The translations under genes were made by a program, and so were the position numbers. This document shows, piece by piece, positions 4,262 to 50,974 of a stretch of DNA of 64,000 bases. The notes beneath the pieces were generated by a model. The model did not search any database. It had not been told where the DNA came from and was given only the letters and a program-made list of their open reading frames with translations. How positions within the stretch are numbered: position 1 is the stretch's first letter; each line of letters begins with the position of its first letter. Origin of the DNA: Mustelus asterias (Eukaryota); assembly GCF_964213995.1 (NCBI RefSeq), contig NC_135824.1:52638001-52702000 (forward strand). Reading direction: 5' to 3'.

Positions 4262-4567
4262 CTCCATCAGTTGCAGCGCAGTAATAAGTCGCTGTGTCAC
4301 CGGGGTCTACAGACAGAATTTTCAGAATGCACCTTTTCAGATCGACTCTAATCACCTCAAATCGCATCTCCAACCCTGCCTCGAAAGTCGGTTTGCTTCC
4401 AGATACGTCTATTACCACAAGCTGGAGGCCCTGCCCGGAGTACTGGCGGTACCAGAGCATCCTGATATAATCGGTGTCCTCCTGTTGACAGGTCAATGTT
4501 GCGTTGGTCCCTCGCCCCGCAGTTACTTTCCTGGGAATCTGAGACACTGAAGCACATCGACATTGAT
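4262..4567 (-). CDS. TRBV: TCR beta V exon, segment 1 (apparently functional, inverted relative to D-J-C)
   Basis: Acceptor ttcag, then QCRCASVSQIPRKVTAGRGTNATLTC...WYRQYSGQGLQL...DTATYYCAATDG. Canonical Ig V Cys/Trp/Cys, followed by a 23-RSS. Confidence 0.92.
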
Positions 4568-8498: not shown

Positions 8499-8537
8499 GG
8501 TTTTTGTCCAACTCATGCATCTTTATGATCCACTGTG
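8499..8537 (-). other. 23-RSS of V segment 2 (perfect consensus)
   Basis: CACAGTG, 23-nt spacer, ACAAAAACC on the minus strand. Confidence 0.95.
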
Positions 8538-8833
8538 TAAACTCCAGGCGCAGTAATACATGGCTGAGTGATTGGCCCGCAGGCTTGAAGACTCCAGGTA
8601 AAAGTGAGTGTCGTCCGGTTTTCTGGCGGTGAAACCGTCCACCTCCCCTTTGGGAGTGATCGCTGTGCCATAGGAGTAGAAAAGATTCTGAGGCGCACGG
8701 TCAGGATGCCATCGATACCAACTGAAAGAGGAGGTAGACATAGCTTTTACGCAAAGACATTCGATGCTGACTGCAGTGCCCGGAGAGCTGGATATGTAAG
8801 CTGGAGTTTGTTGGACCAGCACGGCCGCCACAT
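8538..8833 (-). CDS. TRBV: TCR beta V exon, segment 2 (CAWS family, inverted)
   Basis: Acceptor ttttacag, then DVAAVLVQQTP...SIEC...WYRWHP...NHSAMYYCAWSL, followed by a perfect RSS. Confidence 0.92.
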
Positions 8834-9352
8834 CTGTAAAACAGCGAGAAAAGATAGAGATATTAACCTTGACACCCCTTGAGGGGATACAAGAACAGAG
8901 AGCGAAAGAGGGCGGAGGCAAGAATGAGAGCGGGAGAGTAAGGCAGTAATATAGAGATAGAGAAAGACAGAAAAGCAGGCAAAGAGTTCGAGGCGAGAAT
9001 GAGAAGGAGGGGCAGGAACAGAGGGAGAACCAGGAACAATCGACAGGGCATGAAGGGATTGAAAGAAAGAGGGAAAAAGAGAGGAAACACACAGAGTCAC
9101 TGAGAGACAAGTGGACGAAGGTCGGGTCAAACTAGAGAAATACATAAGCAAAGAATTCTAAAGAAAGAAACAGAGTGGCAGGGAGAGAAAAACAGAGTGA
9201 CGAACAGAGACTACGGCAACAAAGAGAGACAGAGGGAACCTACACCTTCAAGCGATGTGACGAATCTCAGAACTGAGGTTAACCCCTAATTGCGACACGC
9301 AGCGCAAAAACAGTGAACCTCACTGACAACTCAGAGGCCAGTTCCACCTTAC

Positions 9353-9395
9353 CCGGTAACAGCAGCAACAGAACCCAGAGCCGAGAGCTGTACAT
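9353..9395 (-). CDS. TRBV: Leader exon of V segment 2
   Basis: MYSSRLWVLLLLLP plus G, then GTAAG. Confidence 0.88.
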
Positions 9396-10190
9396 CTTTG
9401 AAGGGTGTTTAACTGCAGGATTTCTCAAATTCTGGACAGTGAGAATCTCTCCTCCTCCAAGTTGTTCAACGTATAAGTGCAAGCGACTACCTTATACTGG
9501 GTTGACACACCCATGTCATTTCCGGGGTGGAGCTCATGCGAACCGGCACATTTACTTTTCGTCCTTCGCTAGCAGAGTCTAAAGTTAGTTTAAACCGGCG
9601 CCACCAGTGGTGGATTTAGTCTAAATCCGTCAATCAATTGTATCCATTTCTCTGTCTATCCCTGCTTTAACTCTCCGCAAACAGTGCTGCTTGTCACTCA
9701 AACATAGCATAGTAGAAATGTTGCTGGTCTATTAGTACAGAAGACGAGGCTAATTGATCCATGGACATCAGTTTCACACCATATCCTGGCAGCAATTGAA
9801 TCAAATCTGCAATAAAGACCCTGTTTTCAGTATTAGTGTGCATGACGCTACTGGATTTCCGTAAAAGCCTGTCTGCTTTACTCATATCCATTAGAGAAGC
9901 AAAGCTGCCATCCTTACTCGGTCTGGCCTCTGCATGATCCGCCACAGGCAAATGTGGTTGACTGACTGCCCCCTGACATGGTTTAGTAACCCAATCCGTT
10001 GGCCAGAAAATAACAGCACCAATTTCTCAAGGAGCGTTAAAGGACATAGTTGCTCGTGACGCCAGCTCTCCGTGAATGAGTGAAATAAAAATGTTTCCCT
10101 TCTTGCACTGCCCGTTTTTCTTTCTACCCTGAGTCACATTCTCTACTTCTTCGGTTTTGTTGCCTTGCCCCAACTTCTTTTGTCATTCTT

Positions 10191-10470
10191 CAATCGCCAG
10201 GCACAGTAAAACACCATCCAGTGCCTCCCCTGCAAGCTGGGCCGTGGCAGGTGGAAGGTCGAGCCATCGGATCTCGAGGCGCAGAAATGTTGCAATTCTC
10301 CCAAAAGGTCGATCCTGTCGCTGCTGTCAGAATGGAAAAGGAGCAAAAACTCTCGGTTTGAGAGCTGCCGATACCAAACGAATCTCCCCGAATATTTCTG
10401 CTCTTTTGGGGAAATCGAAGCTTTTCAGATGTTCCACAATCCGATACCAATCGCATGTACGTCATCCTAG
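10191..10470 (-). pseudogene. TRBV: TRBV pseudogene (CAW family)
   Basis: Reads *KASISPKEQKYSGRFVWYRQ...LLFHS...FCASRSDGSTFHL...VFYCAWRL. In-frame TGA at 10427-10425 and first Cys lost. Heptamer decayed (AAGAATG); nonamer ACAAAACCG still at 23-nt spacing (10160-10152). Confidence 0.8.
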
Positions 10471-11455
10471 AACATGAATATATTTAGTCATTGAGAGTGC
10501 CCACTTCCTCACAGAAGGGACGACAGAGAAGCGTGAGTCATCTTCTGAAGAGGAGAAATGGAGGGGAGGTTTACTTCAGGTTTCCAGTGATGAGTAGGTT
10601 CAACCATTTGGAGAGTCTGGAGAATCTCTTGGGGGAGGGAGGGTGCTGTTGGGAGAGGCTAACGTTCAATTCGGGAAAGGTTCAGCATCCGTCGATCAGA
10701 GTATAAGGTGCACAGGAAAATCCTCTTTCCATTTCTACACATTAGAACGAATCTAATGAAGTTATTTACAAAATCGTTGCTCACTTGAATTCTTGTAGAA
10801 CGTGAGGAATGTATGTCAGTCGCGGATAATCGAAACGCTTTGTCGCTTGAGATGCAGAGATTGCAAAATGTTCATTCTTAAATCCGGGTTAAATTTATTT
10901 GGTGGTGTGTCAGATGCTGCTTTCTTAATTTCCTTTTTTTTTCTCTGTGACCATTTCTCTTTTTGTCCCTTCCACTCTCTTATTTATCCGCCACTTTCTG
11001 CATTTCTTCATCACTTCTTTTATCCTGCTTTCGAAAGAATACTGTAATTATGTTCCAAATGTTGAGACACGAGGGACAATGGACGAGCAGTCAGATTGCA
11101 GTCGGGCAGGGTATACATCATTGCATTTTGTTGGACGTTTATAATGAATATTTTAAAAGTCCAATGCCCTGGTAGCCTTGAACTCAATGTGGTGGGAGTA
11201 CAAATAGTATCATGGAATCATAAAATCTGATAACGTAGAGGGAGGCCAGTCGGCCGATGTTGTCTGCACCGGCATCCGAAAGAGCTACTCAGCTACTCCC
11301 ATTCTCCAGCCCTTTCTCTCTATCCCACTAAATTCATCACTTTCAAATATGTATCCAGCTCTCTTTTGAAAGCGCCAAAAGAATTCGCTTCCACCACTCT
11401 CAGCAGACTCCAAATCCCAACAACTCTGAGTGCAGAAAATTCTCCTCATCTCACT

Positions 11456-11796
11456 CATAGAAATCATAGAAACCCTACAGTGCAGAAGGAGGCCATTCGG
11501 CCCATCGAGTCTGCACCGATCACAATCCCACCCAGGCCTTACCCCCACATATTTTACCTGCTAATCCCTCTAACCTACGCATCTCTGGACTCTAAGGGGC
11601 AATTTTTAACCTGGCCAATCAACATAACCCGCACATCTTTGGACTGTGGGAGGAAACCGGAGCACCCGGAGGAAACCCACGCAGACACGAGGAGAATGTG
11701 CAAACTCCACACAGACAGTGACCCGAGCCGGGAATCGAACCTGGGACCCTGGAGCTGTGAAGCAGCAGTGCTAACCACTGTGCTACCGGGCCGCCC
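11456..11796 (-). mobile_element. tRNA-derived SINE (HE1-like) inserted in a CR1 remnant
   Basis: Pol III boxes, CR1-type 3' tail with (TTCTATGA) repeats; flanks are antisense CR1 sequence. Confidence 0.8.
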
Positions 11797-13269
11797 AAAA
11801 TAGCTGGCCCTGGCCCTGGCCCTGGCCCTCTTGCTGGTCCTGGCCCTCTTGCTGAACAAGTTGAAATTGTGACCACCTATTCATTGACATACGAAACAGT
11901 GGAAGCAGAATATCCTTCCTTACACTGTCAAAATGGTTCATAATTTTGAACACCTCAATAAGGGAATCTCTTAAACTTCCCTGATCCATGGAGAATAAGC
12001 CCAATTTCTGAAATCTTAACTTGTATCATAAATTCGCCATTACCTGTAGAAATAGGGAGAATCTCTGATGAAGAGTTCAATAAATCACTGGTGAGATTCT
12101 GCCTGAGGTGTTGTGTTATGTTCTGGCTCTGTGCCCTAACTTCCCCCCTCCTATCCAGTCCTAAATACCTGCTTTACGACACCATCCCCAACACTCTGCC
12201 TCTATTTCTTCCCTTTCTATCCGTTTCAATTTCATATTCCTTCCTGCTCTCCATTTCTATTATTTCATCCTTTCCTTCTCTCCTATTATCCACACTTTAC
12301 TAGTTCCTCCCATCAGGTCTCATCCCCCATCCCTTCTACAATCCTTCCATCGATATTCCATTTACCAATCACCTCATCTTTGCTCCCACAACTCATTCCA
12401 CTCGCCACTGTCTCCTTCTTGCTGACCCTCCCCTCTCCTCCTTCTGTCTCTCTATTCCCTCCTAACTTCTCCTTCCTCTCAGTGCCACTGCTCTTTCCTA
12501 TCCTCCTATTCCTTCCTCTCAGCACAAACAACATTAAACTTAGGGACGGGTTGGTGAACCAGTGATGTCAGGCCCTAAGTTCGCATCCAAAAGGGAACCA
12601 ATCGGTGCACTATCGAAAATGTTTTCAGGACTGCATCAGAAGCTGTGAAGTAGCTGAGGCCAATAGAGTTGCATGGTCTGTGGGACGAGGTCACTTCAAT
12701 GTAACATAAGGAGCTTTTCCAGACATCACGGGTTGCAGCTGAGTGTAGTTGGCTTTCAGAAAGTGCGGGAGGAACAAAACTGGATAATGGGGAAGTAATC
12801 AGAATTTGTTATAATTTGTCCGTCCGTCCGTCCCTCCGTCCCTCCGTCCATCCGTCCATTCGTCCATCCATCCATCTATCTTCGTTCTGTAGTTTACAGT
12901 GGATGGTGATTTGTGATTTCATTGATTTCGATTAATCTACCTGACCTCTTTCATTTCAGATAATGATATTCTATTTTTAAGATTAGAACATTATCCATGA
13001 ATGTTCTTCTCGTTAAATTAGTTGCTATTTTTAATCATATATTCCGTGAAGGGTCGTTGAGGCTATTAGTGCCTCTGAGTATTTCCTGGATCTTCCAACG
13101 AATGCCCACTCATTTTTCAAAGTTTCCAAAGAATCTGCTGTACCATCGTTCAGTGTTTCCAAACTGATGAAACGCACAGAGGAGATGTCCAAAACTCTGC
13201 AATTATGAATCTTTTGCCAATATCCTAAAATCAGTGTCCACTGGTGATCGTTCCTTTACCTGTCCATAT

Positions 13270-13580
13270 TACGGTGGCATAGTGGTTAGCACAGCTGCCT
13301 CACAGCGCTGGGAGCCCGAGTTCGAATCCAGCATTGGATGACTGGATAAAGTTTGCACGATCTCTGTGTGCCTGCGTGGGTTTCCGCTGGGTGCTCTCGT
13401 TTCCTCTCATGGCCCAATCATGTGCAGGTTAGCTGGATTGGCCCCTTAATATGTGCAACATAAATGCGCGAGGTTAAGGGGATAGAGCTGTGGGTGGCCC
13501 TGGGTAAGCTGCTTTGTTGGAGGGCTGGTGTGGACGCGATGGGCCAAATAACCTCCTTCTGCACTGCAAGGATTCAATGA
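13270..13580 (+). mobile_element. tRNA-derived SINE (diverged)
   Basis: Similar to the other SINE copies. Confidence 0.7.
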
Positions 13581-13924
13581 TATTAGCTCCTGATATTTAA
13601 AGTGTATTCATCAAAACACGTCAGGGTTTTGTAGAGGTCTCTTAGATCATGCCTTAACCCATGAAGGAAGCCATTCCAGAGGCACATAAATTTTTAAACC
13701 CACGAATATATCACCCACGATTCAAATATTGCAAAAGTGAGACCTGTGTCTAGATACCCTCCTCAAGGGGCAGTTGCCGGACAGCCGTTTGAGCGCATGG
13801 CCATGAAAAGACTTCTCCAGCAATTTGAGAAATAAGATAACATGAGAAATAAAAATGCTATATTGTCCCCACACTTTGGATAAAGAGGTTGCTTCTGAAT
13901 TCCCTTCAGAATTTTAAATTAAGA

Positions 13925-14285
13925 ATAATCGAATCAAAGAATTCCTACATTGCAAAAGGAGGCATTTCAGCCCATCGAGTCACCATTGACTCTCTGAAGA
14001 CCATCTTCCTCAGGCCCATTCCCCGAATCCCAGTAACCCTTGATTACCAAAACTAACCCATCAAAACTACACAATTTTGGACACTAAGGGCAATTTAGCA
14101 TGGCCAATCAATCTAACCCCTGCATATCTTTGGAGTGTGGGAGGAAACTGGAGACTCGGATCAAACCCACGCAGACACGGTGGCAACGTGCAAACTCTAC
14201 ACAGACAGTCACCCAAGACTGGAATTGAACCTGGGTCTCTAGCGACATGAGCCAGCAGTGCTAACCACTGTGCCAACGTGCCGCC
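13925..14285 (-). mobile_element. tRNA-derived SINE
   Basis: Similar to the other SINE copies. Confidence 0.75.
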
Positions 14286-14893
14286 TAAGTAATTATCTAA
14301 TATTGATGAAGGTTGGTTAACGCATCCACTCTAACGATCCTCTCTGTTCACTCCTATATCCCTGCATTTAAGTTCACCCTCATGAATTTATGCAATTATT
14401 TTTTGAACTGATGATTGAATCTGCTTTGATCACACTTTCTGGCGGTTCATTCTCGCTTGCAGATCTGACTGATTTAAACAGATTCTCCGAGCAATCAGGT
14501 ACTTTTGAGTTCTGCTAATGAGTTCCCTGATGATAATTTACTAACTGACGAGTCGCGCACCGGAAATGGCGACTCATACAAAAGCAAAATACTACGGATG
14601 CTGGCAACATGATAAAAAAACCGAAGTCTGGAAATCATCAGCAGGTGTGGCAACAGGTGATGCCTAAACTGCTGAATGTTTCTCACATTTTCAATTTTTA
14701 CGCAGGAAATAACAAGTCGTGTTCTGGGAGCCAATTAAAAATAAAGAAAGATTTGCCCCTCCCATTTGTCTACTTAACATTCAGGACAAAGCGACAGCGA
14801 ATCCCACTCAGTGTTGAGAACTTTGAGATATGCTACAATAAAAGGGCTCAGTGGTTTCACGTTGTGAATAAGCAGATCTTTCAGCTTCCGAGG

Positions 14894-14936
14894 ATGTCTG
14901 TGTCTCGGCTCTACATTTCGCGACTGCTGATAGCTG
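14894..14936 (+). CDS. TRBV: Leader exon of V segment 4
   Basis: MSVSRLYISRLLIA plus G, then GTTAGG. Paralogous to the other leaders, but with Arg in the hydrophobic core and a weaker donor. Confidence 0.7.
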
Positions 14937-15507
14937 GTTAGGTGGAGTCGAACGGTGAGGTGTCAGTGATCCTCACTTTAATTGTTTCCGGAGTTGAGCT
15001 GCTTTGACGTTGATATTCCACTCCCCACTCCGCAGGGATAAATTCACCACTCACCAGGGGTTAATTCACAGTTAGGTTGCCAGGTTTTTCCATAACTCTT
15101 TCAATACCCGTGTCTTTTTCTGCCCTTCTCGGTCTTTCACAGTTTTCTCACTCTATACTGACCCTCCCTGTGTCCGTTTGTCTCTGTGCCTTTGCGTGTT
15201 TCCCTCGCTGTCATTATCTCACTCTCTCCATCTTATCCCAGCGATTGTTCTTGCTTTCCTTTTTGTAGTTCCCTTGCTCTGTGTCCGTGTCCCGCTCAGT
15301 GAGTCTCCTCCTGTCTGTTTGTATTTCTTCTATTTCCCACCTTTAGTTGTCATTCTGTGCAATGTTGCATCTCTCATACACGAACACACACACGCTCACT
15401 CACTCTCTCTCTTTCATTCACCCATATCTATCTTTCACGCTTATTTTATGTGCCCATCAAGGGATATCAAAGTTAACTTCCTTACTTTTCCATAGTCGGT
15501 TTTACAG

Positions 15508-15806
15508 ACATGGCGGCCGTGCTGATCCAACGGACTCCCTCTTCTATATCCAGTTCCCCGGGCACTAAATTCACTATCAAATGCATTTACACGGAACCAA
15601 CAGCTGGAACCTATGTCTACTGCTTCCGATGGCACCCTGACCGTGAGCCTCAAACCCCTTTCTATTCTAACTTCGCTGGAAGAGTCATTCTGCACGGTGA
15701 GGTGAACAGTTCCAACTTGAGTAGGCCCAACAACACCCACTTTTACCTGGAGTCCTCTGGTCTGTGGGCGAATCACTCGGCCGTGTATTATTGCGCCTGG
15801 AGTTTG
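15508..15806 (+). CDS. TRBV: TCR beta V exon, segment 4 (open frame, probably defective)
   Basis: DMAAVLIQRTP...TIKC...YVYCFRWHP...YYCAWSL. Conserved Trp replaced by Cys. RSS is CACAATA, 22-nt spacer, ACAAAAGCC (15807-15844). Confidence 0.85.
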
Positions 15807-16613
15807 CACAATAACTCCAGAGACCAAACCCCTCAACAAAAGCCCTAACAGGGGTCAAAATATAATTATAGCCGACAGGACTCTGCTGTCGGTCAGCCTG
15901 TGTGTCTCGCTGTGTCAATCAATCAATCCGCCCGCCGCGCTCCCGTCCGCCCGCCCGTCTGTCTATCTCTTACCTTTTTCCGCCCCTGTAGTTTACACCT
16001 GAAGGTGAATCAGAATTTTATTTCATTGATCGAGTAATCTTTTTGCTCTTTTTTTTTCAGATTATGACATTCCATTGTTAATAGTAAAACTTGATGCACG
16101 AATGCTGTTCACGTTACATTAATCGCTATGTTTGATAATCTATTCCGTGAAGAGATAGGCTATTGGTGGAATTGTGACTTTCCCGGCTCATCCTGTTTGG
16201 AAGTTTCTGTTGAGTTTGCTGTAGAGCGATGAACAGTCTTTTCCAGATGAGGAGGATATTAAACATCTGCAACTCTGAATCTTTTGCCAATTCACTGAAT
16301 TAGGTGTCCTCTGGTGAACGTTCCTTTACCCATCAATGTTAGCTCCTGATCTTTCATATTTATTTACTCATCAAAATACTGCAGATATTTGTACACCTTT
16401 CAGATATTTCCGTAGCCTCCATGCTCTAAAGGGAACAATTCCATAGAAAAAGAAATAATAAAGTCCATAAATGTAGTATCCATGATTCAAACAGTGCAAG
16501 TGCGATACATCTCTCCAGATACATTCCTCAATGGGGCACCTGCCCTGACAGCCGTTTGTGCATATGGTGAAGGCCGTTTACGGAATCTATGCTATTCGCC
16601 TTAACCCCTCCCG

Positions 16614-17438
16614 TGTGCTAAGGCCCAGGCCAGACACTCCAAGGTGTTTTGTGAAGTTGGCCTCGACCCTAAGTTTTACATTTGATTTTGTGATTGGTGA
16701 GTATAAGTTGTTTCACTCCAGGTATGATTCAAGTGACCCACTTGGAAGCTTTGCTCAAACAAAGTTTATTTAAGGACAGAGTTACGATATAACGAAAATA
16801 ATTAGCATAACATTTACCAATTTAAAGACTTAAACATGACGCAGTATAAACCTTCACAGCTAGCTATTTCTGTTGTTCCAATTTAACAGCAATACCCCAT
16901 TAACGTACAGCCTTATTAAGAATTAGTTATCACTAAAATAAGTATGGTCACATAATACTAGATTTCCTGGTTTTAACACCAATGGTTGGAAATCCAAACA
17001 GCAATTTTCAGGGAATGATATATCCTCAAGGCAGCAAAACAGAGAAGTAAACCTAGTCTCTCGCAGCTTCCAAAGCAGAAACACTTTGACAGCAGAAAAT
17101 CCAACTGGAGAGAGAGGGAAAAACACCGCTTTCTCTTTCGCAGCTCCAAGCAGCACCTGAACTTGAATATCTGTGTAAGCCCAGCTTCCACCATCACATT
17201 ACCACACCTGCCAATCATCCCAATTAAGCCCCACCCTGCAAAATCCCAGGAGAGAAGAGCACAACAGCATTAGTTCAGATTAAAACCAACATTCTGGCCA
17301 TTAGAAGCAATTATGCTGTTGCAGCAACAATACAGGATGCTGGTAGACAGGACGGCTCCGAGTGCATATAACTATTACAACAGACCTTGCACAAGAACAA
17401 AGCTCAAACACGTTTCTTCAAGGCACAGTATCCTCACA
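16614..17438 (-). mobile_element. LTR-like interspersed repeat (possible solo LTR)
   Basis: Interrupts the duplicated V cassette. TG...CA ends, minus-strand AATAAA, related to 50975-51796. Confidence 0.5.
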
Positions 17439-18141
17439 TGTGAAAGTCAGTTTTAAATTGTCCCCACGCTTTTGGTAAAGAGATTGTTTCCGAATTCCGT
17501 ACAGGATTTATAAGTAATTCTCTCATATTGATGATGGCTGGATAAATTGTCCCCTATTCAATTAGTCCCATTCTCTGTTCGCCCCCATATCACGGTATTT
17601 AGTTTCCCCGTCAATATTTTATCCAATTCAATTCAGAAATATATTATTGAATCCGTTCCGTTCTGACTTTCAGGCAGTTCATTTTCTTTTGTATAACTGA
17701 CAGATTCTGCCAAACATCTGGTACTTTTGCCAATGCTCTGAGTTATCTGATAACACTGTTCTTCCTGACTGGCCCCGCACCAGAATTGAGGACTACTAAA
17801 AAAGCAAAATATGCTGGCATTTTAATAAAAACCGAAAAGTTTGAAATGTTCAGCAGATCTGGCAACATCTGTGGACAGAATCAAATTTACCGTTTCAACT
17901 CTGCTGATAACTGTTTTGGTGAACGTTGCTAGTATTTTCGCTTGTTATTCAGGAAATGACGAATCCTATTCTGGGAGCCAATGAAAAAATAAAACATATT
18001 TGCCCCTCCCATCCGACTACTTAACATTCATAACATGGGAACAGCAAAGTCCACTCAGTTTCCGGAACGTCTGAGATATTCGACATTAACACGGCTCAGT
18101 GGTTTCACGTTGTGAACGCACGGGTCTTTCAGCCTCCGGGG

Positions 18142-18184
18142 ATGTCTCCGCCTCAGCTCTGGGCTCTGTTGCTGCTGTTGGCTG
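18142..18184 (+). CDS. TRBV: Leader exon of V segment 5
   Basis: MSPPQLWALLLLLA plus G, then GTAAG. Confidence 0.9.
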
Positions 18185-18762
18185 GTAAGGTGGAGTTGAA
18201 GGGCGAGGTGTCACTGATCCTCGTTGTTATTGCGTCCGAGTTGAGTTGCTTTGGAGTTGAGGTTCTTCTCCCGATCTCTGGGAATTCATAGTAGATACAG
18301 ATGATCTGCAACTGTTAGGATGCCGCTTCTTTCCGTCACTCTCTCAGTCCCTGTGCTCCTTTCTCTCTGTCTCACTCGTTCCCGAGTTGTTTTCTCTCAC
18401 TATGCCGACCCTCCCTTTTTCCGTGTGTCTCATGTGCTCTGCTTGTTTCCCTCACTGTCATAATCTCAGTTTGCTTCTACATATAACAACCATTGTTCTT
18501 CCTTTCCTATTTGTCGTTCCCTCGCTCCCTGTCTGTGCCCCGCTCATTATGCCTTTCTCTCTCTCTCACTCTCCCCCTCTGTCTGCATTTCTTCTGCTTC
18601 TCGACTTTTGCTCTCTATCTCTGCAACTTTTCATCTCTCTCTCTTTCTCACGCACACCTTATTTTCATTGATTCACCCCCATCTATCTTTCACTCTCATT
18701 TCTTCTGCCATTCAAGGGATATCAAATTTAACCCCCTTGTCTTTCCACAGTCGGTTTTACAG

Positions 18763-19061
18763 TTACGGCGGCCGTGCTGATTCAACAGAGTCCCTCTTCC
18801 ATATCCAGTTCCACGGGCACTACAATCACCATCGAATGCCTTTATGCAGAAGCAGCAGCTGGCAACTATTTCTACTGGTATGAATGGCATCCTGACCGTG
18901 AGCCTCGGAACCTCTTCTATTCCAGCACCGTTGGCAGCGTGTTTCCCACCGGTGAGGTGGGTGGTTTCACCGCGAGTAGGCCCAGCATGACCCACTTTTT
19001 CCTGAATTCCTCGGGCCTGTGGGCGAATCACTCGGCCGTGTATTATTGCGCCTGGAGTGTA
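18763..19061 (+). CDS. TRBV: TCR beta V exon, segment 5 (apparently functional)
   Basis: VTAAVLIQQSP...TIEC...WYEWHP...NHSAVYYCAWSV. RSS is CACAGTT, 23-nt spacer, ACAAAAACC (19062-19100). Confidence 0.93.
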
Positions 19062-20310
19062 CACAGTTACTCACATAGATGCAAACCCTCAACAAAAACC
19101 CGAACAGGAGTCAAAATATAATTGTAGCCAATTAAACCCTGTTGTCGGTCAGCCTCTGTGTCACACTGTCTGAATGTATACATGTATGCATGCATGTATG
19201 TATGCATGCATGTATGTATGTATGTATCTATATATTTATCTATCTATCTGTCTATTTATCTGTCTATCATCAATCTTCGTACCTGCAATTGACAGTGGTT
19301 GGTGAATCATGATTTATTCCATTGATATCAATTAACCTTTTGTTCTCTTTCATTTCAAATTATGGCATTCTATTATTGATATTTACAACATGATACATGA
19401 AAGTTCTGATGCTTTTCTCGTTAAAATAATCGCTATTTTTAAGTATCTATTCCAAGAAGGGATAGACGAGGCTAGTGGTTCTATTGTACCTTTACCCACT
19501 CTTCCAAAGAACACACTCCTCCGCTTTAAATCTGCTGCACCGCCATTCTGAGTGTTTTCCACGTGATGACAGTGCAATCAGGAGGATTCTAGACATCGGC
19601 AACTCTGAGTCTTTTGTCAATTCCCTTAAGTTGTCCTCTGGTGACCGGCCCTTTACCTAACGATGTTAGCACCTGATTTTTCATATTAACTCATCAAAGC
19701 ACTTCAGGATTTCGTCCGTTTTTCCGATCTTCCCCTAGCATCACTAATCTGAGAGGAACAGTTCCACAGAAAGGAAAAACCTTTAAATCCCTAAATCTGC
19801 CACCAAGGTTTCAAATAGTGCAAAGGCGAGACAATTCTCCAGATACGTTCCTCACTGGGGCACACCCTCAGGCAGTTCATTCTCTGTTGTATAATTGACT
19901 GATTTATACAGATTATCCTAAGCTTCTGGTACATTGACGAACGCTCCTGAATTTGAGTACTATGATGAAACCAGTGGTTCTGACTAGCCACACCCCAGAA
20001 GTCATGAGGCAACAAGATGCTCGGATGCTGCAAATCTGAAATAAAACTGAAAAAAAGCTGGGAAAACTCGGCGACATCTGTGGAGAGAATCAGAGTTACC
20101 TTCTGTGCTCAGATGGTGCCAGAACTGCTGAATATTTCTCGCATTTTCTATTTTTACTCAGAAAATGACACCCGTTCTGGGAGCCAATGAGAAAATGAAG
20201 AAAGATTTTCCCCTCCCATCCGACCATTCCGGACATGGCGATAGCAAATCCCACTCAATGTTCAGAACTTTGTGAGTGTTACGAACACAACGATCTTTCA
20301 GCCTCCGGAG

Positions 20311-20353
20311 ATGTCTCCATCTCAGCTGTGGGCTCTGTTGCTGCTGTTACCTG
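20311..20353 (+). CDS. TRBV: Leader exon of V segment 6
   Basis: MSPSQLWALLLLLP plus G, then GTAAG. Confidence 0.9.
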
Positions 20354-20796
20354 GTAAGGTAGAACGTCAGTGATCCTCGCTGTTATTGCTTTAGAGATGA
20401 GTTGCTTTGGATTCGAAGATCCCTTCCCAATTCCCCAGGAGTTCACTCACACCCATTGAAGCTACAGATTTTGTGCACCTGTTAGGATGCCAGTGTCTTC
20501 TTCCTTTCCCATCACATTTTTTTCTCTGTCTCACTCTGTTCTCATAGTTTTCTCTCTCTGTGCTGACCCTCCCTTTGTCCGTTTGCCTCTCTGTGCTCCT
20601 GCTTGTTTCCCTCGCTCTCAGTATCTCACCCTCTCCATTCATTTATCCCAGTGATGGTTCTTGCTTTTCCATTTTATTGTTCTTTCACTCCCTGTGTGTG
20701 TCCCGCTTATTATCCCTCTTTGTCTCTTGCTCTCCCGCTCTGTCTATGTTTCTTATGTTTCTCACCTTTAGTCATCTTTGTGTCTAAGGTGGCTGC

Positions 20797-20832
<36 letters not shown>

Positions 20833-20929
20833 ATGTTCATTCGCGCTATCTATCTTTTGCGATAATTTCTTGTGTCATTCGGGGGATATCAAAGTTAACT
20901 CTCCTGTCTTTTCACAGTCGGTTTTACAG

Positions 20930-21225
20930 ATACGGCGGCCGTGCTGATCCAACAGACTCCCTCTTCTATATCCAGTTCCCCGGGCACTAAGGTCACTATC
21001 AAATGCATTTACACGGAAGCAACAGCTGACACCTATTTCTACTGGTATCGATGGCGTCCTGACCGTGAGCCTCAGAACCTTTTCTATTCCATGGCTGGTA
21101 GAGTCAATCCGCCCGGTGAGGTGGACGGTTTCAGAGCGAGTAGACCCAACGGCACCCATTTTTACCTGGCCTCCTCCAGCCTTTGGGCAAATCAGTCGGC
21201 CGTGTATTACTGCGCCTGGAGTGAA
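20930..21225 (+). CDS. TRBV: TCR beta V exon, segment 6 (intact frame, abnormal RSS)
   Basis: DTAAVLIQQTP...TIKC...WYRWRP...YYCAWSE. RSS is CGCAGTG, 23-nt spacer, ACAAAAGCC (21226-21264). Confidence 0.9.
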
Positions 21226-23380
21226 CGCAGTGACTCACAGCGGTAAAAGAGTTCAACAAAAGCCCTCATCCGGGTCAAAATATAAATAGCCAATTGAACT
21301 CTCACGTCTGTCAGCCTCTATCTATCTTTGTGCCTGTAGTTTACAGTGGATGGTGAATCATGATTTATTTTAATTAATCTTTTTTTGTTCATTCGTAGGA
21401 CATGGGCGCAGCAAGCCGACCATCATTTATTCTAGTTGCCCGAGAGCAGTTGAGAGTCAACCACGTTGCTGTGGATCTGGAGTCACATGTAGGCCAGACC
21501 AGTTAAGGACGGCAGATGATTTCATAGTCATCAGTAGATTCTTAATTCCAAACATTTTTGATTGACTTTAAATTGCACCATTGACGTGGTGGGATTCGAA
21601 CCCGGGTCCCCAGAACATTAGCTGAGCTTTTGGATCAATAGTTTAGCGATAATACCACTCGGCCATCACCTCCTCTTCTTGCTCCCTTTTATTTCAGATA
21701 GTGACATTGCATTACTAGCATTGAATCATAATGCATGAATGTTCTGACGTTCTTCTCATTAAGTTGGTCGCTACTTTTAGCAATATATTCCGTCAACGGG
21801 CGGCACGGTAGCACAGTGGTTAGCACTGCTGCTTCACAGCTCCAGGGACCTGCTAAATCTTGTCTGTTGAAAGTTTCTATTGAATCTGCTTCCACCATCC
21901 ATTCAAGCACTACCTCCCAGATGATAACCATTAGCTGTGGAGAAAATTCTACTGATTTCAGTAGATATCAGTTTCAGTGTGCCCTCATTTCATCTTTCCA
22001 AACACTTCGCGGGTCGGAAGTCTTTCAAATGTTGCCTTATCCTGACTACTGCAAGGGTAACAATTCTGCACAATCAGCAAACTCAGATCTCCACAAATTT
22101 CTCAGCAATCATTACCACATTGCAAAGACCAGACATCTCTAGGAAACACTCTTGACGGCAGTTTGCACATCTGTTGAAAGTCATTAACCCAGCGTTTATC
22201 AGACATTCGGCTCCTGGTGGAGAGTTCGTAAATAATCTAATACTTCATTCCGGAAAAGACATAACCCTTTAACTTTCCGTCTGAACTCGATATATTTATC
22301 TTTTTCATATGAAAGAACAGGCCACGAGAACCATGAAATCATAGATGACACAACAAGACCATTCAGCCCTTCCAGCCGGGCCCGAAGGGCTTGAACGAGC
22401 TACCCATTTGGTCCCACGTGACCACAGGAGGCTCTGCCAACTCTCTTCAAGTCACCGTATCAGTATCCAGTTCTTTCTCCCGTATCTTCTTATTCGGCTT
22501 CTCATAAAATGCACATATAGCTACTCGCTTTTTGATCAGCAAGGGAGTCAAGGGTTATGGGGCAGGGTCGGGTGCAGTCAGGAACGTGGAGCCGAAGCCA
22601 CAACCAAATATGCCACTTTACTAAATTGGAGCAGGTTCGAGGAGCCGAATGGACCATTCCTGCTCCTAATTCGATCGTAAGAGTTTTAACAACAGGTTTC
22701 CAATCTGTGTGCCTGTGTTTCTGACTTTCATTAGATCGACCAGTTGCTCTAAGCCATCAACATAACTGGATTCTCTCTTCGCCTCTTTCCCTATATGTTA
22801 ACGCTTGATTATTTCTCCGAATCTGTTTTGAAACCTCCTGTTGCTGTCCCCTCTCTTAGGAAGAAGTGTTGTTGTCCTGTGAACGCCAATGTGCGTGCCT
22901 GAATAGTGATATTCCTTTATTCCAATCATGTTACTCAGGAGTGACCGCCCTGTACTTCACAGTGACTGGCGGATGCTCTCATACGGCAATGCGGTCGCTG
23001 ATTTATGCCGCAAGTATTTCTGTTGTGGCTGGGCTCCTTACTTTTTTTATCGGCTTTTTACTATTGACCGGTTTAAGCTTCAAGGTGACGCAATTTCCAA
23101 CCATGTGGCCGCATCCCGCATTTCAATGCCGAATGCATAAGGGCTGCTATCATTTCTGGCGAACATGCGTTTAGACCCTTTGTTGCTGGCTCCCTTATTA
23201 CTGATGCCCCGCAAGGGTCACGATTAAGAAACTACTCTCCGACTTACATCAACGAGTGACAAACAGACAAGCTTAGATATCAAGATCTGATTGTGTAATG
23301 CACATTCCCCTCATATGTTATTTAATTTACTGCCGTGAAAATTATGTCAGAAATTTAGTAGTGTAGGTTGGAAGAAGGAT

Positions 23381-32260: not shown

Positions 32261-32273
32261 GGGACAGGGGGGA
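32261..32273 (+). CDS. TRBD: TCR beta D segment GGGACAGGGGGGA
   Basis: Near-identical to the conserved vertebrate D-beta1 GGGACAGGGGGC, flanked by 12- and 23-RSS, open in all three frames. Confidence 0.97.
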
Positions 32274-32727: not shown

Positions 32728-32775
32728 CTGGGACAACGGCCTATTTCGGGAGTGGCACCAAACTGACGGTACTAG
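32728..32775 (+). CDS. TRBJ: J-beta 1 GTTAYFGSGTKLTVL
   Basis: FGxG motif, donor GTAAG, RSS CGTTGATGT-12-TGATGTG. Confidence 0.93.
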
Positions 32776-33264
32776 GTAAGAAATTTGATTTCTTTCTCTC
32801 TAAATGCACGGCGGTGTGCATCCTACGCTCCGAGGGACGGAACTCAATATACCCCTTTATTTAGAAAAAGACCATACCTGTTCCATCCTCCAGCAACACT
32901 AAGTCGCTCGATGCCAAGCCAGTATACTTGGAGACGGCTGTACCGATTGGTTCAAACAGAAATGGCGAAGCGGCCATACTCTGAATACAGACACGACCTG
33001 TAACTAATTGCTAATTGGACCTCTAAAGGATGCTGTAGAACTAATAGATTAAAATTTGACCCATAGAGATCAGATTGCAGGGCAAGGTAGAATCCACAGA
33101 TTAAACTAAAATATACAGGTCAGTATAGCTTTCATATATTATCATGGAATCATCTGGGCTAGAATGGAATCCATGTAGTTCAACGGGATCATTCAGATTG
33201 GATATGGGCAGAATGGAAAGCAATACTGTTTTGAGGCTTTTTGAGAGGATGGGGTGTCACCGTG

Positions 33265-33312
33265 CGACAGATGTGAATTATTTTGGACAAGGAACCAAAT
33301 TAACAGTTTTGG
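33265..33312 (+). CDS. TRBJ: J-beta 2 TDVNYFGQGTKLTVL
   Basis: FGxG motif, donor GTGAG, heptamer CACCGTG, T-rich nonamer at 12-13 nt. Confidence 0.93.
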
Positions 33313-33504
33313 GTGAGTCGAATGTCGTTCTTAATTCTCGTTTATCCTCCAAGCGGTAATCAATAAGACGTTTAATTTTGCAAACCATGCAACATGAATC
33401 ATGTCCACCTGCCTCGTAAATGTTTATCTCTAAACGGAGCAAACTCTCTAAGTAGGGAAGGGACAGTTCAGGGACCTGTTCATGACTTAGAATTGAGCAT
33501 CGTG

Positions 33505-33552
33505 CAGGGAACACAGTTTACTTCGGCGACGGGACGAAGTTGACAGTTTTGG
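33505..33552 (+). CDS. TRBJ: J-beta 3 GNTVYFGDGTKLTVL
   Basis: FGxG motif, donor GTAAG, RSS TGTTCATGA-12-CATCGTG. Confidence 0.92.
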
Positions 33553-34134
33553 GTAAGGTGACTGCGTTCTTCCTATTGACTAATGTATATGTCTAGACGC
33601 ACCTAAATAATCGCGAGGGCCAATATTCAGTATTTGGATATAAAAAGCTCAGCACTGATTACATGGGCTAGGTTATCATTCTCATGAATACAGAACATGA
33701 AATGTTTATATAATCGAGGCGTTTAAAATGACTGAACGAATTGGTGGAGTAGATTGAGGGAAAAGATTTACTGTTGCCAAGGGAGACCAGAACATTTTCA
33801 GTTAGAACAGGCCGTTCTAGTTTGATGTCGGAAAGCTCCCATTGACTCAAAAGGTAGTGGGAATCAGGAAATTACTTCCCAAAAAGCTGTTGAGGATTTG
33901 AAAAATCCAAACTCCCTATAGATAGGCGGAGGTAAGCAATGGTGCCTAATGTGGCTGAACAAAAACTGGATGATGGGGTTAAGGCACATTGATGATGTGA
34001 CAGGCTCAAATGGCCGCCTCCTATCCCTATGTTCCTACGTTTCGTAATGGTTATTAACATAGCAAAAGCTCCAATAAAACTGAACTCACAACCCAGACTT
34101 GGAGGGGATTTTACTACAGCCCTGTACCTCTGTG

Positions 34135-34184
34135 TTCTGCTAGTGAAGCTTATTTCGGAAGTGGGACAAAACTGGTCGTTTTAG
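34135..34184 (+). CDS. TRBJ: J-beta 4 SASEAYFGSGTKLVVL
   Basis: FGxG motif, donor GTAAGT, RSS GATTTTACT-12-CTCTGTG. Confidence 0.93.
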
Positions 34185-35583
34185 GTAAGTGAATACATTC
34201 CTAATACTGGAGAAAGTTGGTTCAATTTACGAATTCATGCGGGAGGTGGAGGGAGTGAAAAAAATCGGAATTTGGTTCATTAATTTCAACTTTACAGCTT
34301 ACTATGGCAGACTGGCTGATGTTGAACTCGTTTCACTGTAGAAAATGAGTCAATATTAGGAAGAATCTCTCAACCAAACAGCAACAATGTAGATGCAAAC
34401 AAAATTATTTGGTCAATGAGGGTAGAACAGTAAACAGAGGACACATCTGTCAGACTAAAATCATCAGGCTCAATTGTTCTTTACTCTGTTTAGTCTAGGT
34501 TATATGAAGAATATGGTACAGGCATTAGATATGGTTTACAAATGAACAAGAATGGTAGTGAAACTAATGGCTATAATTATCAGGAGAGATTGAAGCGGCT
34601 TGAGCTGAAGGGTGACCTGATAGCGATTCAGATTATGGAAAGTGCTTCCAGAAGATAGACCTAGAAAAGGGCTTTCTCTGTAGTGGATCAGAAGTAGGGT
34701 AGGAGCCATCAATAGAAGAAAGTCACTCATAAATCCAATTAGAGAAACATCTTACCACAGAGAGTGGTGATAATTCGCTACCACAGGGCTAAGGTGAATA
34801 GCATAGATGTTTTTGAAGATGAAGCTGCATAAAGACATGAAGGAGAATGTAATCGAACCTGGTGGAAATTGAACGTTATCCCACGCAGTCCTCACTAATC
34901 TGTAACAGTAATAAATTCATGTATTTTAAAATTACTCTTTGAATAGTGCTGTTAAGCTATTTCGTATGTGCACAATTGGGGGAACAAAGAATTCATCCTT
35001 GAGCGTATGAAATCAAAGAGTTACATTTTTGTGAGAGGTTCCTTGAACTATGTCTGCAGTGTATTAAATATAAATGGTTAAGAGGTGTTCAAATTGATCT
35101 GTATGAGATTATTATAGGATTCAGATGTCTAACGAGCACTAAACTGTTCGCTCTGGTGTGGCGAGTGCTCACAAAGGGGGTGAACTTCTATAGTTAGAGC
35201 CAGACTGGCCATGAGCGATGTCAGAAAGAATTGTGTTGACATAAAGTCTAGTGGAATTCTTAAAATGTCTCCCCCAGGAAGTTGTTAGGACTGGAGGGAT
35301 TTAGTGGAGGGCATTGAACTGAGGAAGGGGCATTCTCAATTGAAAATTTCAAATGTCTGATTTACTGATTCCTAGATAAGCCATGATCTAATTTAATATT
35401 AGAACAAGCTCATTCAGCTATATGGCTTCAGGCCATATCAGGCCACGTTCCATTGTTATTATGTTTTTAGATCCTCGTGTTCCTTTGGTCCTACGTTCCT
35501 CTGTTTCCATTGTTATGTATAATCCTCTCGGGGCACAAATCACAGAAAGGTTAGATGTTTTATAACAGGCATGAACCTTTGTG

Positions 35584-35633
35584 CTCTGGCAGCACCTACT
35601 ATTTCGGAGCTGGGACAAAATTAACTGTTTTAG
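35584..35633 (+). CDS. TRBJ: J-beta 5 SGSTYYFGAGTKLTVL
   Basis: FGxG motif, donor GTAAGT, RSS TGTTTTATA-12-CTTTGTG. Confidence 0.93.
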
Positions 35634-35763
35634 GTAAGTGTATGTTTAGATAAACATACATTTATATGCATAGCTTTATCTACCTGCCAACCTAGTTATT
35701 TACCTATATGTCTGTATATCCGACCATCACTGATGTGTTTTAGTATTGTTATTTAGTATAGTG

Positions 35764-35817
35764 CAGGCGGGTATGACCCTCTGCACTTTGGGGAAGGAAC
35801 GAAATTAACGATTTTGG
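35764..35817 (+). CDS. TRBJ: J-beta 6 GGYDPLHFGEGTKLTIL
   Basis: FGxG motif, donor GTGAGT, RSS TGTTTTAGT-12-TATAGTG. Confidence 0.93.
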
Positions 35818-36071
35818 GTGAGTTCGATTTCTATTTTTATTAAAGCAAGAGTCGTGTGTTTTGAGCAGAGTTGAATGACTGATACTACGAAATTTTGCAG
35901 CACTGTCAGGACTGCAGAATTGAGAGCACATTTAATTTCAATTAGATACCGCCTCGTTAGTTCATAAAGTTGCATTAACTTATAGTTATCTCACGCTAAG
36001 TGAAGACCTCTATCAAATGTTTGGAGCAGTAAGTGTTGCGGAGCGTTTTTGTGAAGTGACATGATGATGTG

Positions 36072-36122
36072 TGAACAACCAACCCTTGTATTTTGGAGAT
36101 GGAACTAAACTGACTGTCTTAG
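36072..36122 (+). CDS. TRBJ: J-beta 7 NNQPLYFGDGTKLTVL
   Basis: FGxG motif, donor GTAAG, RSS CGTTTTTGT-12-TGATGTG. Confidence 0.93.
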
Positions 36123-36966
36123 GTAAGCGAGTTGTTCAAAATGTATCACTTAACACATGGTCATTCATCTCATTGAGGCACTTTACATATCGGTTTAAAG
36201 AAAGGGGACAATATGAAATGTGGAAAGACATTTGAAAGCGTATTATTAAAGAAGTAACAACTCAATAACTTACTGAATGGAAAGGAAAATGTGTGGGGTT
36301 GAAGGGCGAACGAGGGAGGAATTGAGAACCATATATTGAGAAAGATTGTTGAATAGAATAAACTAGAGCAGGAGGAGGACATTCTGACAGTCCAACTTTT
36401 TCTGACACTCAGAAAGATTATGGCTGATCTGAACATGACTCAATTCCACTTAACTCCCTGTTCTCCAGAACACCCAGACCCCTGTAGTTAAATATCCGTA
36501 TAACTATCTTGAATATATTCAATGACTCAGCCTCCCCAACTCTCTGAAGTAGATAATTACGAAGATATGTGACTGTGCAAGGGAAGAAATTCCTCCTCAT
36601 CTCCGTTTCAAATGGGTAACTATTTCTTCTGAAACGATTGTGCCAGAATTTTTGTTTCCCACGAGGAGGAAATTTCACTAAGCATTTCCCTTGAAAAGCC
36701 CCAGTCAAAATCGGATATTTTAAGCTAATATCTCTAGTCGGTTTTCAATCTCCAGATCGAGAGGAATGAATAGATAAAACTGGCAGAGGATAGTAAATTA
36801 TAGAGACATGACTGCAGGAAAGAATAAAATGTAATACAAAACCAATATGGCAAAAGAAAAGGTATGGTGGGATGTAACACAAAACAATATGATCCAGCTG
36901 TGTTCATTAACTGAGGTGTAGAGAACTAAAAGAATTCTAGTTTTATTACAACCTTGTAACATAGTG

Positions 36967-37018
36967 TCAGGAAGCTATGATTATACATTTGGTGCTGGTA
37001 CAAGACTCGTTGTTTTAG
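36967..37018 (+). CDS. TRBJ: J-beta 8 SGSYDYTFGAGTRLVVL
   Basis: FGxG motif, donor GTAAGT, RSS AGTTTTATT-12-CATAGTG. Confidence 0.93.
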
Positions 37019-47861: not shown

Positions 47862-48206
47862 AACATGATAGGAAGGATGCCACAGTTACGGTCTTTGAAC
47901 CCTCTCCCGACGAGATCAAAGAGAAGCACTGTGCGACTGTGGTTTGCCTTGTATCTGACTTCTACCCCGACAATATCGAGATCACCTGGTTCGTCGATGG
48001 CGACGAAAGGGAGGCCAATGACAAAAGCATTCAAACCGATCTCAAATCCATCTCAATGGATGGGAACAAGACCTTCAGTATCAGCAGTCGCCTGCGATTC
48101 AAGAAAGAAGACTGGGTCAAGACCAAGACGGTCAAGTGTGAAGTGAAACACTATACTAACGGCTCAACGCCAGACATCCACATGGACATGCTTAACGTCA
48201 AAGCTG
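47862..48206 (+). CDS. TRBC: TCR beta constant exon 1 (Ig C1 domain)
   Basis: Acceptor acacag, then (E)HDRKDATVTVFEPSPDEIKEKHCATVVCLVSDFYPDNIEITW...FSISSRLR...VKCEVKHY...NVKA, donor GTAGG. Confidence 0.96.
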
Positions 48207-48500
48207 GTAGGCTCACTAAAGCGATCCATGCCATTCTGCTTTAGCTTCGAAGAAAGCAGTATCTTGCATGGTTCCTGTGCTCCTCTCAGTGATCAAGTAG
48301 ATGAAGCTGTAGATCAATAAATAGCTAAATGAATAAGAACAGAGAACAAATGTAATGAGAAACAATGTTAAAAATTGTATTTAAGTGACTGTTGCAAGAT
48401 AACAAACTGAATATGACTTACAACTATTATGATATGCATCTACGCAGTAATTCCACAACGTGTCAGGTGCTAAAATGTTTTTTTCCTCCATTTCTTTCAG

Positions 48501-48521
48501 AAATCTGTGGTCTAAGTAAAG
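48501..48521 (+). CDS. TRBC: TCR beta constant exon 2 (hinge with interchain Cys)
   Basis: Acceptor tttcag, AA ATC TGT GGT CTA AGT AAA G, donor GTAAGT; reads EICGLSK. Confidence 0.92.
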
Positions 48522-49699
48522 GTAAGTCAACATATCCTCCTATCTGCTTCTGGGCACTACGCATTGGGAAGAGTGGGAGTTTCCTTCAGAGGATACAAAG
48601 GAGATTTACGAAAATGGCCCCAGAGATTGAGGGTTTAGATGCAAGGTTGGCTTGGAGAAGATGGGGTTGCTATCCTTCCAGGAAAGGAGATTGAATAAAG
48701 ATCTGATGGAGATGTAAAAATTGTACTAGATTTAGACAACGTAGACAAAGAAAAGCTAGTACGTTACGCGATGGTATAAGTACTAGGGGACATATATAAT
48801 ATCTTGGGCAAAAGCTGCAGGGGTAACTTGAGGAAGTATTTGTTTTATGCAGAAAATGGTAATGGAATGTTAATGGACTGCCCAGGAACGTTGTGGAAAC
48901 ACAGACATCAATGATTTTAGAAGGAAATTAGATGGACAAATGAGAAAAATAGAGTTGCAGAGCTACAGGGATGTAACAGGGGGATGGAAATGACTGAACA
49001 TTTCTACAAAGAAACATCACTGACTGGATGAGCCGAATGGCCTTCTTCTGTTCTATAGTGATACTCCGGCATTAAGTCGCTACAGCACATAAATTGCAAT
49101 ATTGAAATTATTATCGTCACAGTTATTTATTGCTATAACAAATGAATTAGCTTATCTTTTAAAAATTGAACAATACATGAACATGACAAGATACAATTCT
49201 TTAATGCTAATCTATTGCTCTCAGTTACAATTCAAACAATATTCCTCTTACAGACATAAACCTTTTTTAAAAATCGGTTAACAGAACACAGACATACATG
49301 CAGTGACTGAGGTTAGCAGGCTTTGAAGCTTTCATAAAGCCTTTGGAGAGAGAAACAGACACTGTTTTCTTCAGACAGATCAGGCAGCAAACTGTTTGTA
49401 TTTCTAAAATATGAAACAGAAGCAGTATTTCTTTCCTGTAAGCTTACCTCCTCCCATTAACAACATAACTATGTTCCTGCCAATCAAGCTGATCGAAACT
49501 CTTCTCTCAAACCCCAGGAGAACCTAAGTAAACACAAATGCATTAGCTCTGCTTAAACAAACACTCCATGTCTAAAATGAATACTTGTTCTCCCAGCTAC
49601 ATATTTAAGGTTGTCTTAGACAAATCAGCACCCTGCAAAACAGATCTGAATTCTAAACATAATTCTGGGAAAAAACATGATATAAATATATTTCTGAAA

Positions 49700-50790
49700 G
49701 GTGCCATATCACCACAGATCACATAATCGTTACGTCACAGATGGAGGCTATTCTGTCCATTGCGTCTGCACTGGCTCTCCAAATAAGTATCATGACCTAG
49801 TGCTTTCCCCGCCCCTTCCTGTACTCCTGCAGACTGTTTCTATTAAAATAATTTCACAAAGCCCTCCTGAATGCCTCGATTGAATTTGCCCTCGACACAA
49901 TTCCAGGTGGTGCATCCCGGACCGGAAGCACTTGCTTTGTGAAAAAGTTTCTTTCTTGCATCATATTTGCATCTTTTACAAATGTCTTTAAACTGTGCAT
50001 GCATATTCTTGATCCTTTTATGAGCGGGAGCAGTGTCCCTCTATTTAATCTGTCCAGACCCCTCATGATTTCGAACATTTTGATCAAATCTCTTATTAAT
50101 TTCTTTCTCTCCAAGGGGAACCTCTCCAATATATCCTCATAACTGAAGTTTATCATTCCTCTCCAATTCATTCAAGTTCTTCCCGTAGACTGTCGCCCAC
50201 TGTACACAATACTCCAGCTAAGATCTATCCAATCTCCGGTATAAGTTGGCATAACCCCCTTGCTTTTATACTCTGTATCAAATACTGTATGCTTTATTAA
50301 CTGCTCTCTCCACCTGTCCTGCCATCTTCAATGATCAATGTGCAGGTCCTTCTGCTCCTGCACCCCCCTAAGAATTTTACCACTTATTTTATGTTGTCTC
50401 TCCATGTTCTTCCATCCAAAGCTCATTACCTCACATATCCCCACATTGGACCTCATCTGCCTCATATCTGCACACTCCAGCAACTTGCCTTTGTAACTTT
50501 CAAGTTATACACATTGCTCCTGTCATATTTTAAAATACTTTCCAATTTTGGTTTATCCACAAACTTTGAAAGTGTCCCCCGCACAGCAAAATCTCGATCA
50601 TTGATATTGATCAGGAAAAGCAAGGGTCCCAATACTGAACACTGGGGAGAACAAGTACAAAGCTTCCCCCAGCCCAAACAAAATCCATTGACCATTAATA
50701 TCTCCTTCCTTTTATTCAATCCATTTGGGGTCCACGTTCCTGCTGGGTTTTTTTTCACAAGTCTATTGTTTGGCACTCTATCCAATGCCC
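49700..50790 (-). mobile_element. Degenerate CR1 LINE fragment
   Basis: PQCSVLGPLLFLININD (RT motif) and CR1 C-terminal motifs on the minus strand. Confidence 0.75.
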
Positions 50791-50974
50791 TTTAGCCTTT
50801 TATGATATCCAATGCCGTTTATGATAAAACTCTTGTAAAGTGGGAAATGTAATTGGACTTTCCAATGGAGGTCTCCTCGACTCAACTCAGCAGAATATAT
50901 GTTTCCTTGTGATAAGGGAAAAGAAAGGCTTGGCAGTGGGTGGATGGAGTTGACTGGAATTACATCTGTCTTGA

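Follow-up and report, generated by a model that had tools for sequence, protein, structure and literature searches.

V segments of the TRBV30 lineage on both sides of D-J-C in a shark TCR-beta locus, and the probable antiquity of the inverted V position behind C-beta

V segments of the window

The stretch of DNA analysed here (the window) covers 64,000 nucleotides on contig C24 of the 3.68-Gb genome of the shark Mustelus asterias (G000:C24:52638001-52702000) and carries a part of a T-cell receptor (TCR) beta locus, with variable (V) segments followed by diversity (D), joining (J) and constant (C) elements. It contains six V exons, one ending in CAAT and five—the subject of this study—ending in YCAW(S/R), designated below as the CAWS lineage, two of them on the minus and three on the plus strand, as the first-pass annotation of this DNA had already recognized. 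These five were located at 8541-8816 and 10194-10427 on the minus strand and at 15525-15803, 18780-19058 and 20947-21222 on the plus strand. A six-frame search for YCAW[SR] in the window gave six matches, compared with a mean of 0.02 and a maximum of 1 in 100 mononucleotide shuffles; the sixth match, near 28145, lies outside any V. The longer motif LFYS...F.ASRP...F.L.SS.L, which the annotation had ascribed to all five segments, was overstated, LFYS being found in three, F.ASRP in two and F.L.SS.L in four of them; its wording of human TRBV30, on the other hand, agrees with the human protein P0135.

The five segments comprise one pseudogene, two copies with damaged recombination signals and two apparently functional copies, at 8.5 and 18.8 kb. 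The inverted V at 8.5 kb, on the minus strand, has an open and intact exon (8538..8833) of the window (WYRW-type) subfamily, a leader exon of 43 nt with a GTAAG donor (9353..9395) and a perfect recombination signal sequence (RSS) with a 23-nt spacer (8499..8537), without any mismatch in both heptamer and nonamer. Its leader is joined to its V exon, from 9353 to 8833 across an intron of 519 nt, in one contig (depth 2) of the public run X4, the type of which is unrecorded, and this joint indicates that the V is transcribed and spliced; the runs X1 and X5 give next to no cover of it and have no bearing on its expression. The forward V at 18.8 kb consists of a leader exon (18142..18184), an open, apparently intact V exon (18763..19061) and a 23-RSS with one mismatch (19062..19100). 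These two V thus combine a leader, a V exon with both cysteines and the tryptophan, a 23-RSS and linkage to a D with 12- and 23-RSS, to J and to C-beta.

Concerning the remaining three, the pseudogene at 10.2 kb (10194..10427, minus strand), ending in CAWR, has a stop codon and no RSS; it falls outside the window subfamily and groups, with support of 100/100, with the second inverted V behind C (C24:52717601) and with C22:53105508 on another contig. The forward V at 15.5 kb (15508..15806) has an open frame in which WY is changed to CF and its function is doubtful; its leader exon (14894..14936) ends in a non-consensus donor and its RSS (15807..15844) is degenerate (CACAATA, 22-nt spacer). The D-proximal forward V at 20.9 kb (leader exon 20311..20353, open V exon 20930..21225) is followed by a 23-RSS (21226..21264) whose heptamer reads CGCAGTG. 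Cutting at the heptamer requires CAC, and owing to its break this signal is likely to be cut poorly. It should be mentioned that a second heptamer-like word lies 10 nt into the 23-nt spacer at both 19062-19100 and 21226-21264, leaving a 13-nt spacer before the same nonamer; the one at 21236 reads CACAGCG, whereas the proper heptamer there is broken.

The three forward V are duplicates in tandem, with 70-72% similarity over stretches of 1.3-1.7 kb, and the complementarity-determining regions (CDR) 1 and 2 vary between the window copies. Taken by itself, the window shows V genes being gained and lost in the usual way, and it is the layout of the whole locus that is of interest.

Layout of the TCR-beta locus

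All five CAWS segments lie upstream of the D-J-C part of the locus, which is encoded on the plus strand and consists of a D-beta segment (32261..32273) with a 12-RSS before and a perfect 23-RSS after it, eight J-beta segments (32728..37018) and the C-beta exons (47864..52627), i.e. the domain exon (47864-48208), a short second exon and a transmembrane exon. Their placement 5' of D-J-C by the first-pass annotation holds for the window copies; it does not hold for the family, which has 18 more members inverted 3' of C. This follows from a profile scan of 344 kb around the window, the family of broken copies being assigned from profile alignments. The locus contains 49 V, 42 of them with an open frame, and the CAWS lineage accounts for 36 of the 49. 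Upstream of D-J-C it makes up 18 of the 21 V—15 forward and three inverted, with five of the 21 being inverted if all families are counted—and downstream of C 18 of the 28 V, every one of the 18 inverted, within an array of several families. Lineage copies with both an open frame and an RSS with at most two mismatches number 12 upstream and 13 downstream. A further copy 3' of the window, which the annotation had proposed to look for, exists 14.5 kb past it: C24:52716471, the first V behind C, shares 61-73% identity with the window's four open copies.

The two arms of the locus, spanning G000:C24:52550726-52837683, are arranged in mirror order. For 17 of the 19 open upstream V the best downstream match reached at least 45% identity (the two below this value were dropped), and the distance of a V from D tracks the distance of its partner from C, with rho of 0.94 and an exact one-sided p of 6/720 in a post hoc test—the pattern had been noticed first—on n = 6 groups after collapsing. 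The distal end of the 5' arm is formed by a block of eight copies, 77-91% identical to one distal 3' V.

As far as the other V are concerned, the one ending in CAAT (4269..4547, minus strand) belongs to a different family. The catshark gene model P0383 is a fusion of a V of this type with one of the window subfamily, their window counterparts being the V at 4269-4547 and the one at 8.5 kb, which suggests that in another shark order, too, the two stand side by side on one strand. In the 3' array, the region C24:52731802-52781107 (L044-L049) holds repeated V with a short CDR2 and extra cysteines, which the trees place close to immunoglobulin heavy-chain (IgH) V and to a V from tarpon. Finally, an inverted V ending in CTAS (L039:3112-3390) goes with immunoglobulin light-chain V in two of the three trees, with modest support and on a long branch.

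Evolutionary relationships of the TRBV30 lineage

The evolutionary trees are based on 728 V domains in 451 proteins, retrieved with three protein searches and a representative search; among the named relatives, proteins from bamboo shark, catshark and horn shark come closest. The main tree of 148 rows comprises 101 domains picked by hand for the spread of taxa and families, together with 47 of the 63 V from the shark genome itself, near-copies having been dropped. In this tree the window segments cluster with human TRBV30 (the above-mentioned P0135) and eight other mammalian copies in a clade of 71 rows supported by 100/97, with members from sharks, sturgeon, bichir, reedfish, gar, eel (conger), newt, lizard, turtles and mammals. 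The clade is retained at 98/92 after removing the second cysteine and everything behind it, and at 98/83 under the LG+C20 mixture model, where it has 25 of the 73 rows. The membership with TRBV30/Trbv31 expected by the first-pass annotation is thus supported for the human copy, mouse Trbv31 being absent from the trees, and so is the age it had proposed: with members from sharks to mammals, the lineage appears to be as old as jawed vertebrates. Judged from their sequences, the five segments belong to the old lineage of mammalian TRBV30, referred to from this point onwards as the TRBV30 lineage.

Its sister group is a family of V ending in CACS from shark, newt, turtle and alligator (98/87 in the 148-row tree, 84/89 under LG+C20); in the present genome this family is seen at L051:6668-6934 and in L091-L097 of contig C69. 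Structural matches point in the same direction as the trees. In PDB searches with profiles built from the shark genome only, the single TCR-beta chains among the top 60 were the MEL5 chains and 5xov, the V gene of MEL5 being TRBV30 (PMC5887915), and a search with the natural V-J-C model P0282 gave 130-132 bits for the MEL5/5xov chains and 121 for the next beta chain (a lead of 9-12). When single V or C exon sequences served as PDB queries, multi-domain antibodies flooded the results and no ranking emerged. Database labels add little: the bichir and reedfish members are automatically named TRBV30, and so, wrongly, is the teleost CASS gene P0031, which makes such names weak.

A convergent CAWS ending in shark segments unrelated to TRBV30 might be suggested by the window copies taken alone, their pairwise score to mammalian TRBV30 being close to that of the best other mammalian TRBV (135 vs 139 for the V at 20.9 kb), and by the trees, which are without TRBV20/29. 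The clade, however, survives both the motif removal and the mixture model, the approximately unbiased (AU) test rejects a tree in which mammalian TRBV30 is forced to join the remaining mammalian TRBV that were sampled (p-AU 0.005), and fishes, amphibians and reptiles supply a chain of intermediates, so that this explanation is already largely refuted and can be regarded as highly improbable.

Within the lineage, the window subfamily (13 rows, 100/98) unites the window's four open copies, another inverted V from upstream, the first V behind C—on C24 as well as in the collinear locus on contig C22 described below—and the catshark and bamboo shark genes P0002, P0383 and P0177. Under LG+C20 it is nested among other shark copies (97/84, 99/85). 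Its window members, which are among the least TRBV30-like copies, share 32-37% protein identity with human TRBV30, compared with 46-47% for a 3'-inverted gene, and the shark match scoring highest to mammalian TRBV30 is a 3'-inverted V with 47% identity to the human protein. TRBV30 proper is a single inverted copy 3' of the last C; the shark copies are multiple, the five in the window lying 5' of D. The window subfamily is probably best described as a derived shark branch, co-orthologous at the level of the lineage and with no one-to-one orthologue. At 32-37% protein identity it is very unlikely that the window copies would reach the IMGT rule for the subgroup TRBV30, i.e. at least 75% nucleotide identity, as given in PMC10464911.

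Two additional TCR-beta loci

A search with the C exon revealed two further TCR-beta loci, giving three in the genome, all of them with an inverted 3' array. The one on contig C22 (G000:C22:52985000-53185000; L060-L080) is collinear with the C24 locus, with exons 88-91% identical, and contains a D, seven J that were found, an open C and 25 V, nine of them open. It is likely a decaying segmental duplicate. The possibilities of a second haplotype and of a whole-genome duplicate were rejected, the exons being only 88-91% identical, RAG2 having a single match, i.e. one copy in the genome, and the Eph ligand-binding exons numbering 17. No 5' counterpart of the distal eight-copy block was found in the C22 stretch examined.

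This locus bears on the conserved specialised role that the first-pass annotation had suggested for the D-proximal family; examples would be a rearrangement that is early or preferred, or a ligand that is invariant. In C24 as well as C22 the window subfamily is indeed nearest to D-J-C on either side, its 3' copy is open on both contigs, and it has the above-mentioned members in catshark and bamboo shark. Against such a role, three of the five window copies are damaged, the C22 counterparts of all three forward window V carry a stop codon, CDR1 and CDR2 differ between the copies, and the subfamily is a derived branch distant from human TRBV30. As a statement on the whole lineage the specialised, upstream reading fails, since the lineage makes up 36 of the 49 V, 18 upstream and 18 inverted behind C; for the subfamily alone it is improbable.

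The third locus, on contig C69 (G000:C69:30597300-30665512; L109-L116), consists of a forward V-D-J-C followed tail-to-tail by a cassette on the opposite strand, in the order transmembrane exon, divergent C, one J, a D with 12- and 23-RSS and then inverted V, the inverted block also holding a TRBV30-lineage V with a frameshift. The main C of this locus is 66% identical to the ordinary C at the nucleotide level and represents an older paralogue, and the inverted C is 34-39% identical to the other three C. The protein model P0282 has the same type of V fused to the same type of J and C as the inverted cassette (72% identity in C), suggesting that such a cassette exists in another species. A sturgeon C-beta, 37-43% identical to the ordinary C versus 34% to the inverted one, offers a weak hint. 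Snake matches considered as TCR-epsilon chains proved to be models with fused IgH V and were discarded.

Origin of the inverted 3' position

In the C24 locus the TRBV30 lineage is the main V pool and faces D-J-C from both sides. Based on the above results, it appears probable that its inverted position behind C predates the divergence of sharks from bony vertebrates, and that mammalian TRBV30 is the last survivor of the 3' array. The backwards position is likely older than bony vertebrates because the lineage forms the bulk of the locus on either side of J and C. The first-pass annotation had expected the window to bear on how the mammalian position arose; the locus is informative in this respect, and what it suggests is a pre-existing inverted 3' array and not a move from upstream in tetrapods.

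The mode of joining by RAG, deletion or inversion, is decided by the orientation of the V and of its RSS. The forward copies would accordingly be expected to join D by deletion, and the inverted 5' V and the 3' array by inversion. The five CAWS segments of the window represent one shark subfamily of the lineage plus one pseudogene of a sister subfamily. The two arms were probably built by inverted duplications or exchanges across D-J-C, which also kept their mirror order, with V genes being gained and lost in the ordinary way. The inverted 3' position would then have been in place before sharks and bony vertebrates separated, and the old array would have shrunk to one gene in mammals.

The same facts can be read differently, namely that the lineage had its origin within the forward 5' array and came to lie inverted behind C independently in sharks and in the tetrapod ancestor, the shared position being convergent. 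PMC11754216 models a shift out of the main array to the 3' side and has non-inverted axolotl members in the clade; 15 of the 18 upstream lineage members are forward here, and inversions are common, as seen from the five inverted among the 21 upstream V. However, an inverted member lies behind C in all three loci, even in the old C69 paralogue, and inversion is present also in salmonids and some amphibians (PMC11754216), so that this origin seems possible but is the less expected one.

Several points nevertheless weigh against the reading favoured here, as to both lineage and position. A lineage sitting on both sides could have given rise to the inverted 3' position twice. Second in its match to mammalian TRBV30 comes a forward copy from upstream, and the AU test rejected neither the grouping of the window subfamily with bony TRBV30 (p-AU 0.46) nor that with the sturgeon/teleost branch (0.33). 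The alignment has only 92 columns, the bootstrap was unconverged for the 148-row and the motif-less trees, and the trees are without human TRBV20/29, mouse Trbv31, chicken V and the V families of Xenopus laevis/tropicalis; TRBV20/29, mouse Trbv31 and chicken TRBV were not recognized among the 728 domains. The mirror order, besides being tested post hoc, involves arm-to-arm pairs of 47-91% identity, and this range argues for repeated exchange between the arms instead of a single duplication event. Finally, no V-D-J junction or rearranged V-D-J sequence was seen in the contigs of the public runs.

The ancient 3' array could be extended by a further scenario, which we consider unlikely. The inverted V behind C-beta in all jawed vertebrates might be a relic of an ancestral second V-D-J-C cassette in tail-to-tail position, retained at C69 and reduced elsewhere by loss of D-J-C with the V kept, down to mammalian TRBV30; the divergent C would then belong to a second old beta-type chain, possibly related to squamate TCR-epsilon. 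On C24 and C22, the stretch from C to the 3' array was examined by tblastn and by a motif scan, and no remnant of an inverted C or J came to light.

The reason why mammals keep one backwards V behind C-beta is treated as an open question in PMC11264764, which deals with mammals only and poses it as a choice between defect and advantage. Had the lineage indeed been the main V pool and already inverted behind C in early jawed vertebrates, TRBV30 would be a leftover of an old array, for which no story of special function is needed. With three TCR-beta loci and a second divergent C, one may also ask how the expression of a shark T cell is limited to a single beta chain.

Comparison with known systems

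The closest counterparts are human TRBV30, mouse Trbv31 and opossum TRBV28 (PMC2275272, PMC11264764), the last reported as orthologous to TRBV30/31 (PMC2275272). They share with the shark segments the V clade (tested with the human copy), the 23-RSS and the CAWS ending, and the shark relatives inverted behind C would join, as they do, by inversion. The mammals differ in having a single gene, in contrast to 36 of the 49 V on both sides of D-J-C with the window copies as a derived shark subfamily. Among other amniotes, one inverted V has been described in duck (PMC5278385) and five in tuatara (PMC11754216), and inverted V after C in the beta and delta loci are mentioned as old in PMC12227049.

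According to PMC11754216, the 3'-inverted TRBV of amniotes and axolotl form one clade with low bootstrap, to which the V of squamate TCR-epsilon is sister; non-inverted axolotl genes are included, nurse shark is present in the tree and a move from the main array is proposed. Both studies thus see the inverted 3' V as one old clade with some non-inverted members. That clade had low support and, in the available text, no named shark member and no map of a shark locus, whereas the support obtained here is high and the 3' array consists of 28 V from several families. In newt and axolotl, clusters of inverted V are known, expressed in newt (PMC12698447, PMC12529555), around five or six tandem D-J-C units; the shark locus has one, flanked by V arms in mirror order.

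Salmonids and pike possess inverted duplicated TCR-beta loci on two chromosomes, where orphan inverted V have been interpreted as what is left of a lost locus (PMC10464911). The several loci, the inverted V-D-J-C duplicates and the divergent C genes are common to both systems; the salmonid pairs, however, are head-to-head with V in the middle and followed a genome duplication, whereas the C69 cassettes are tail-to-tail in a genome with a single RAG2. No paper with a map of a shark TCR-beta locus or with a shark V placed in the TRBV30 clade was found, most subscription journals being outside the coverage. What the present study adds to these systems is that the TRBV30 lineage dominates on either side of D-J-C, that all three loci have an inverted 3' array and that one of them carries an inverted second D-J-C.

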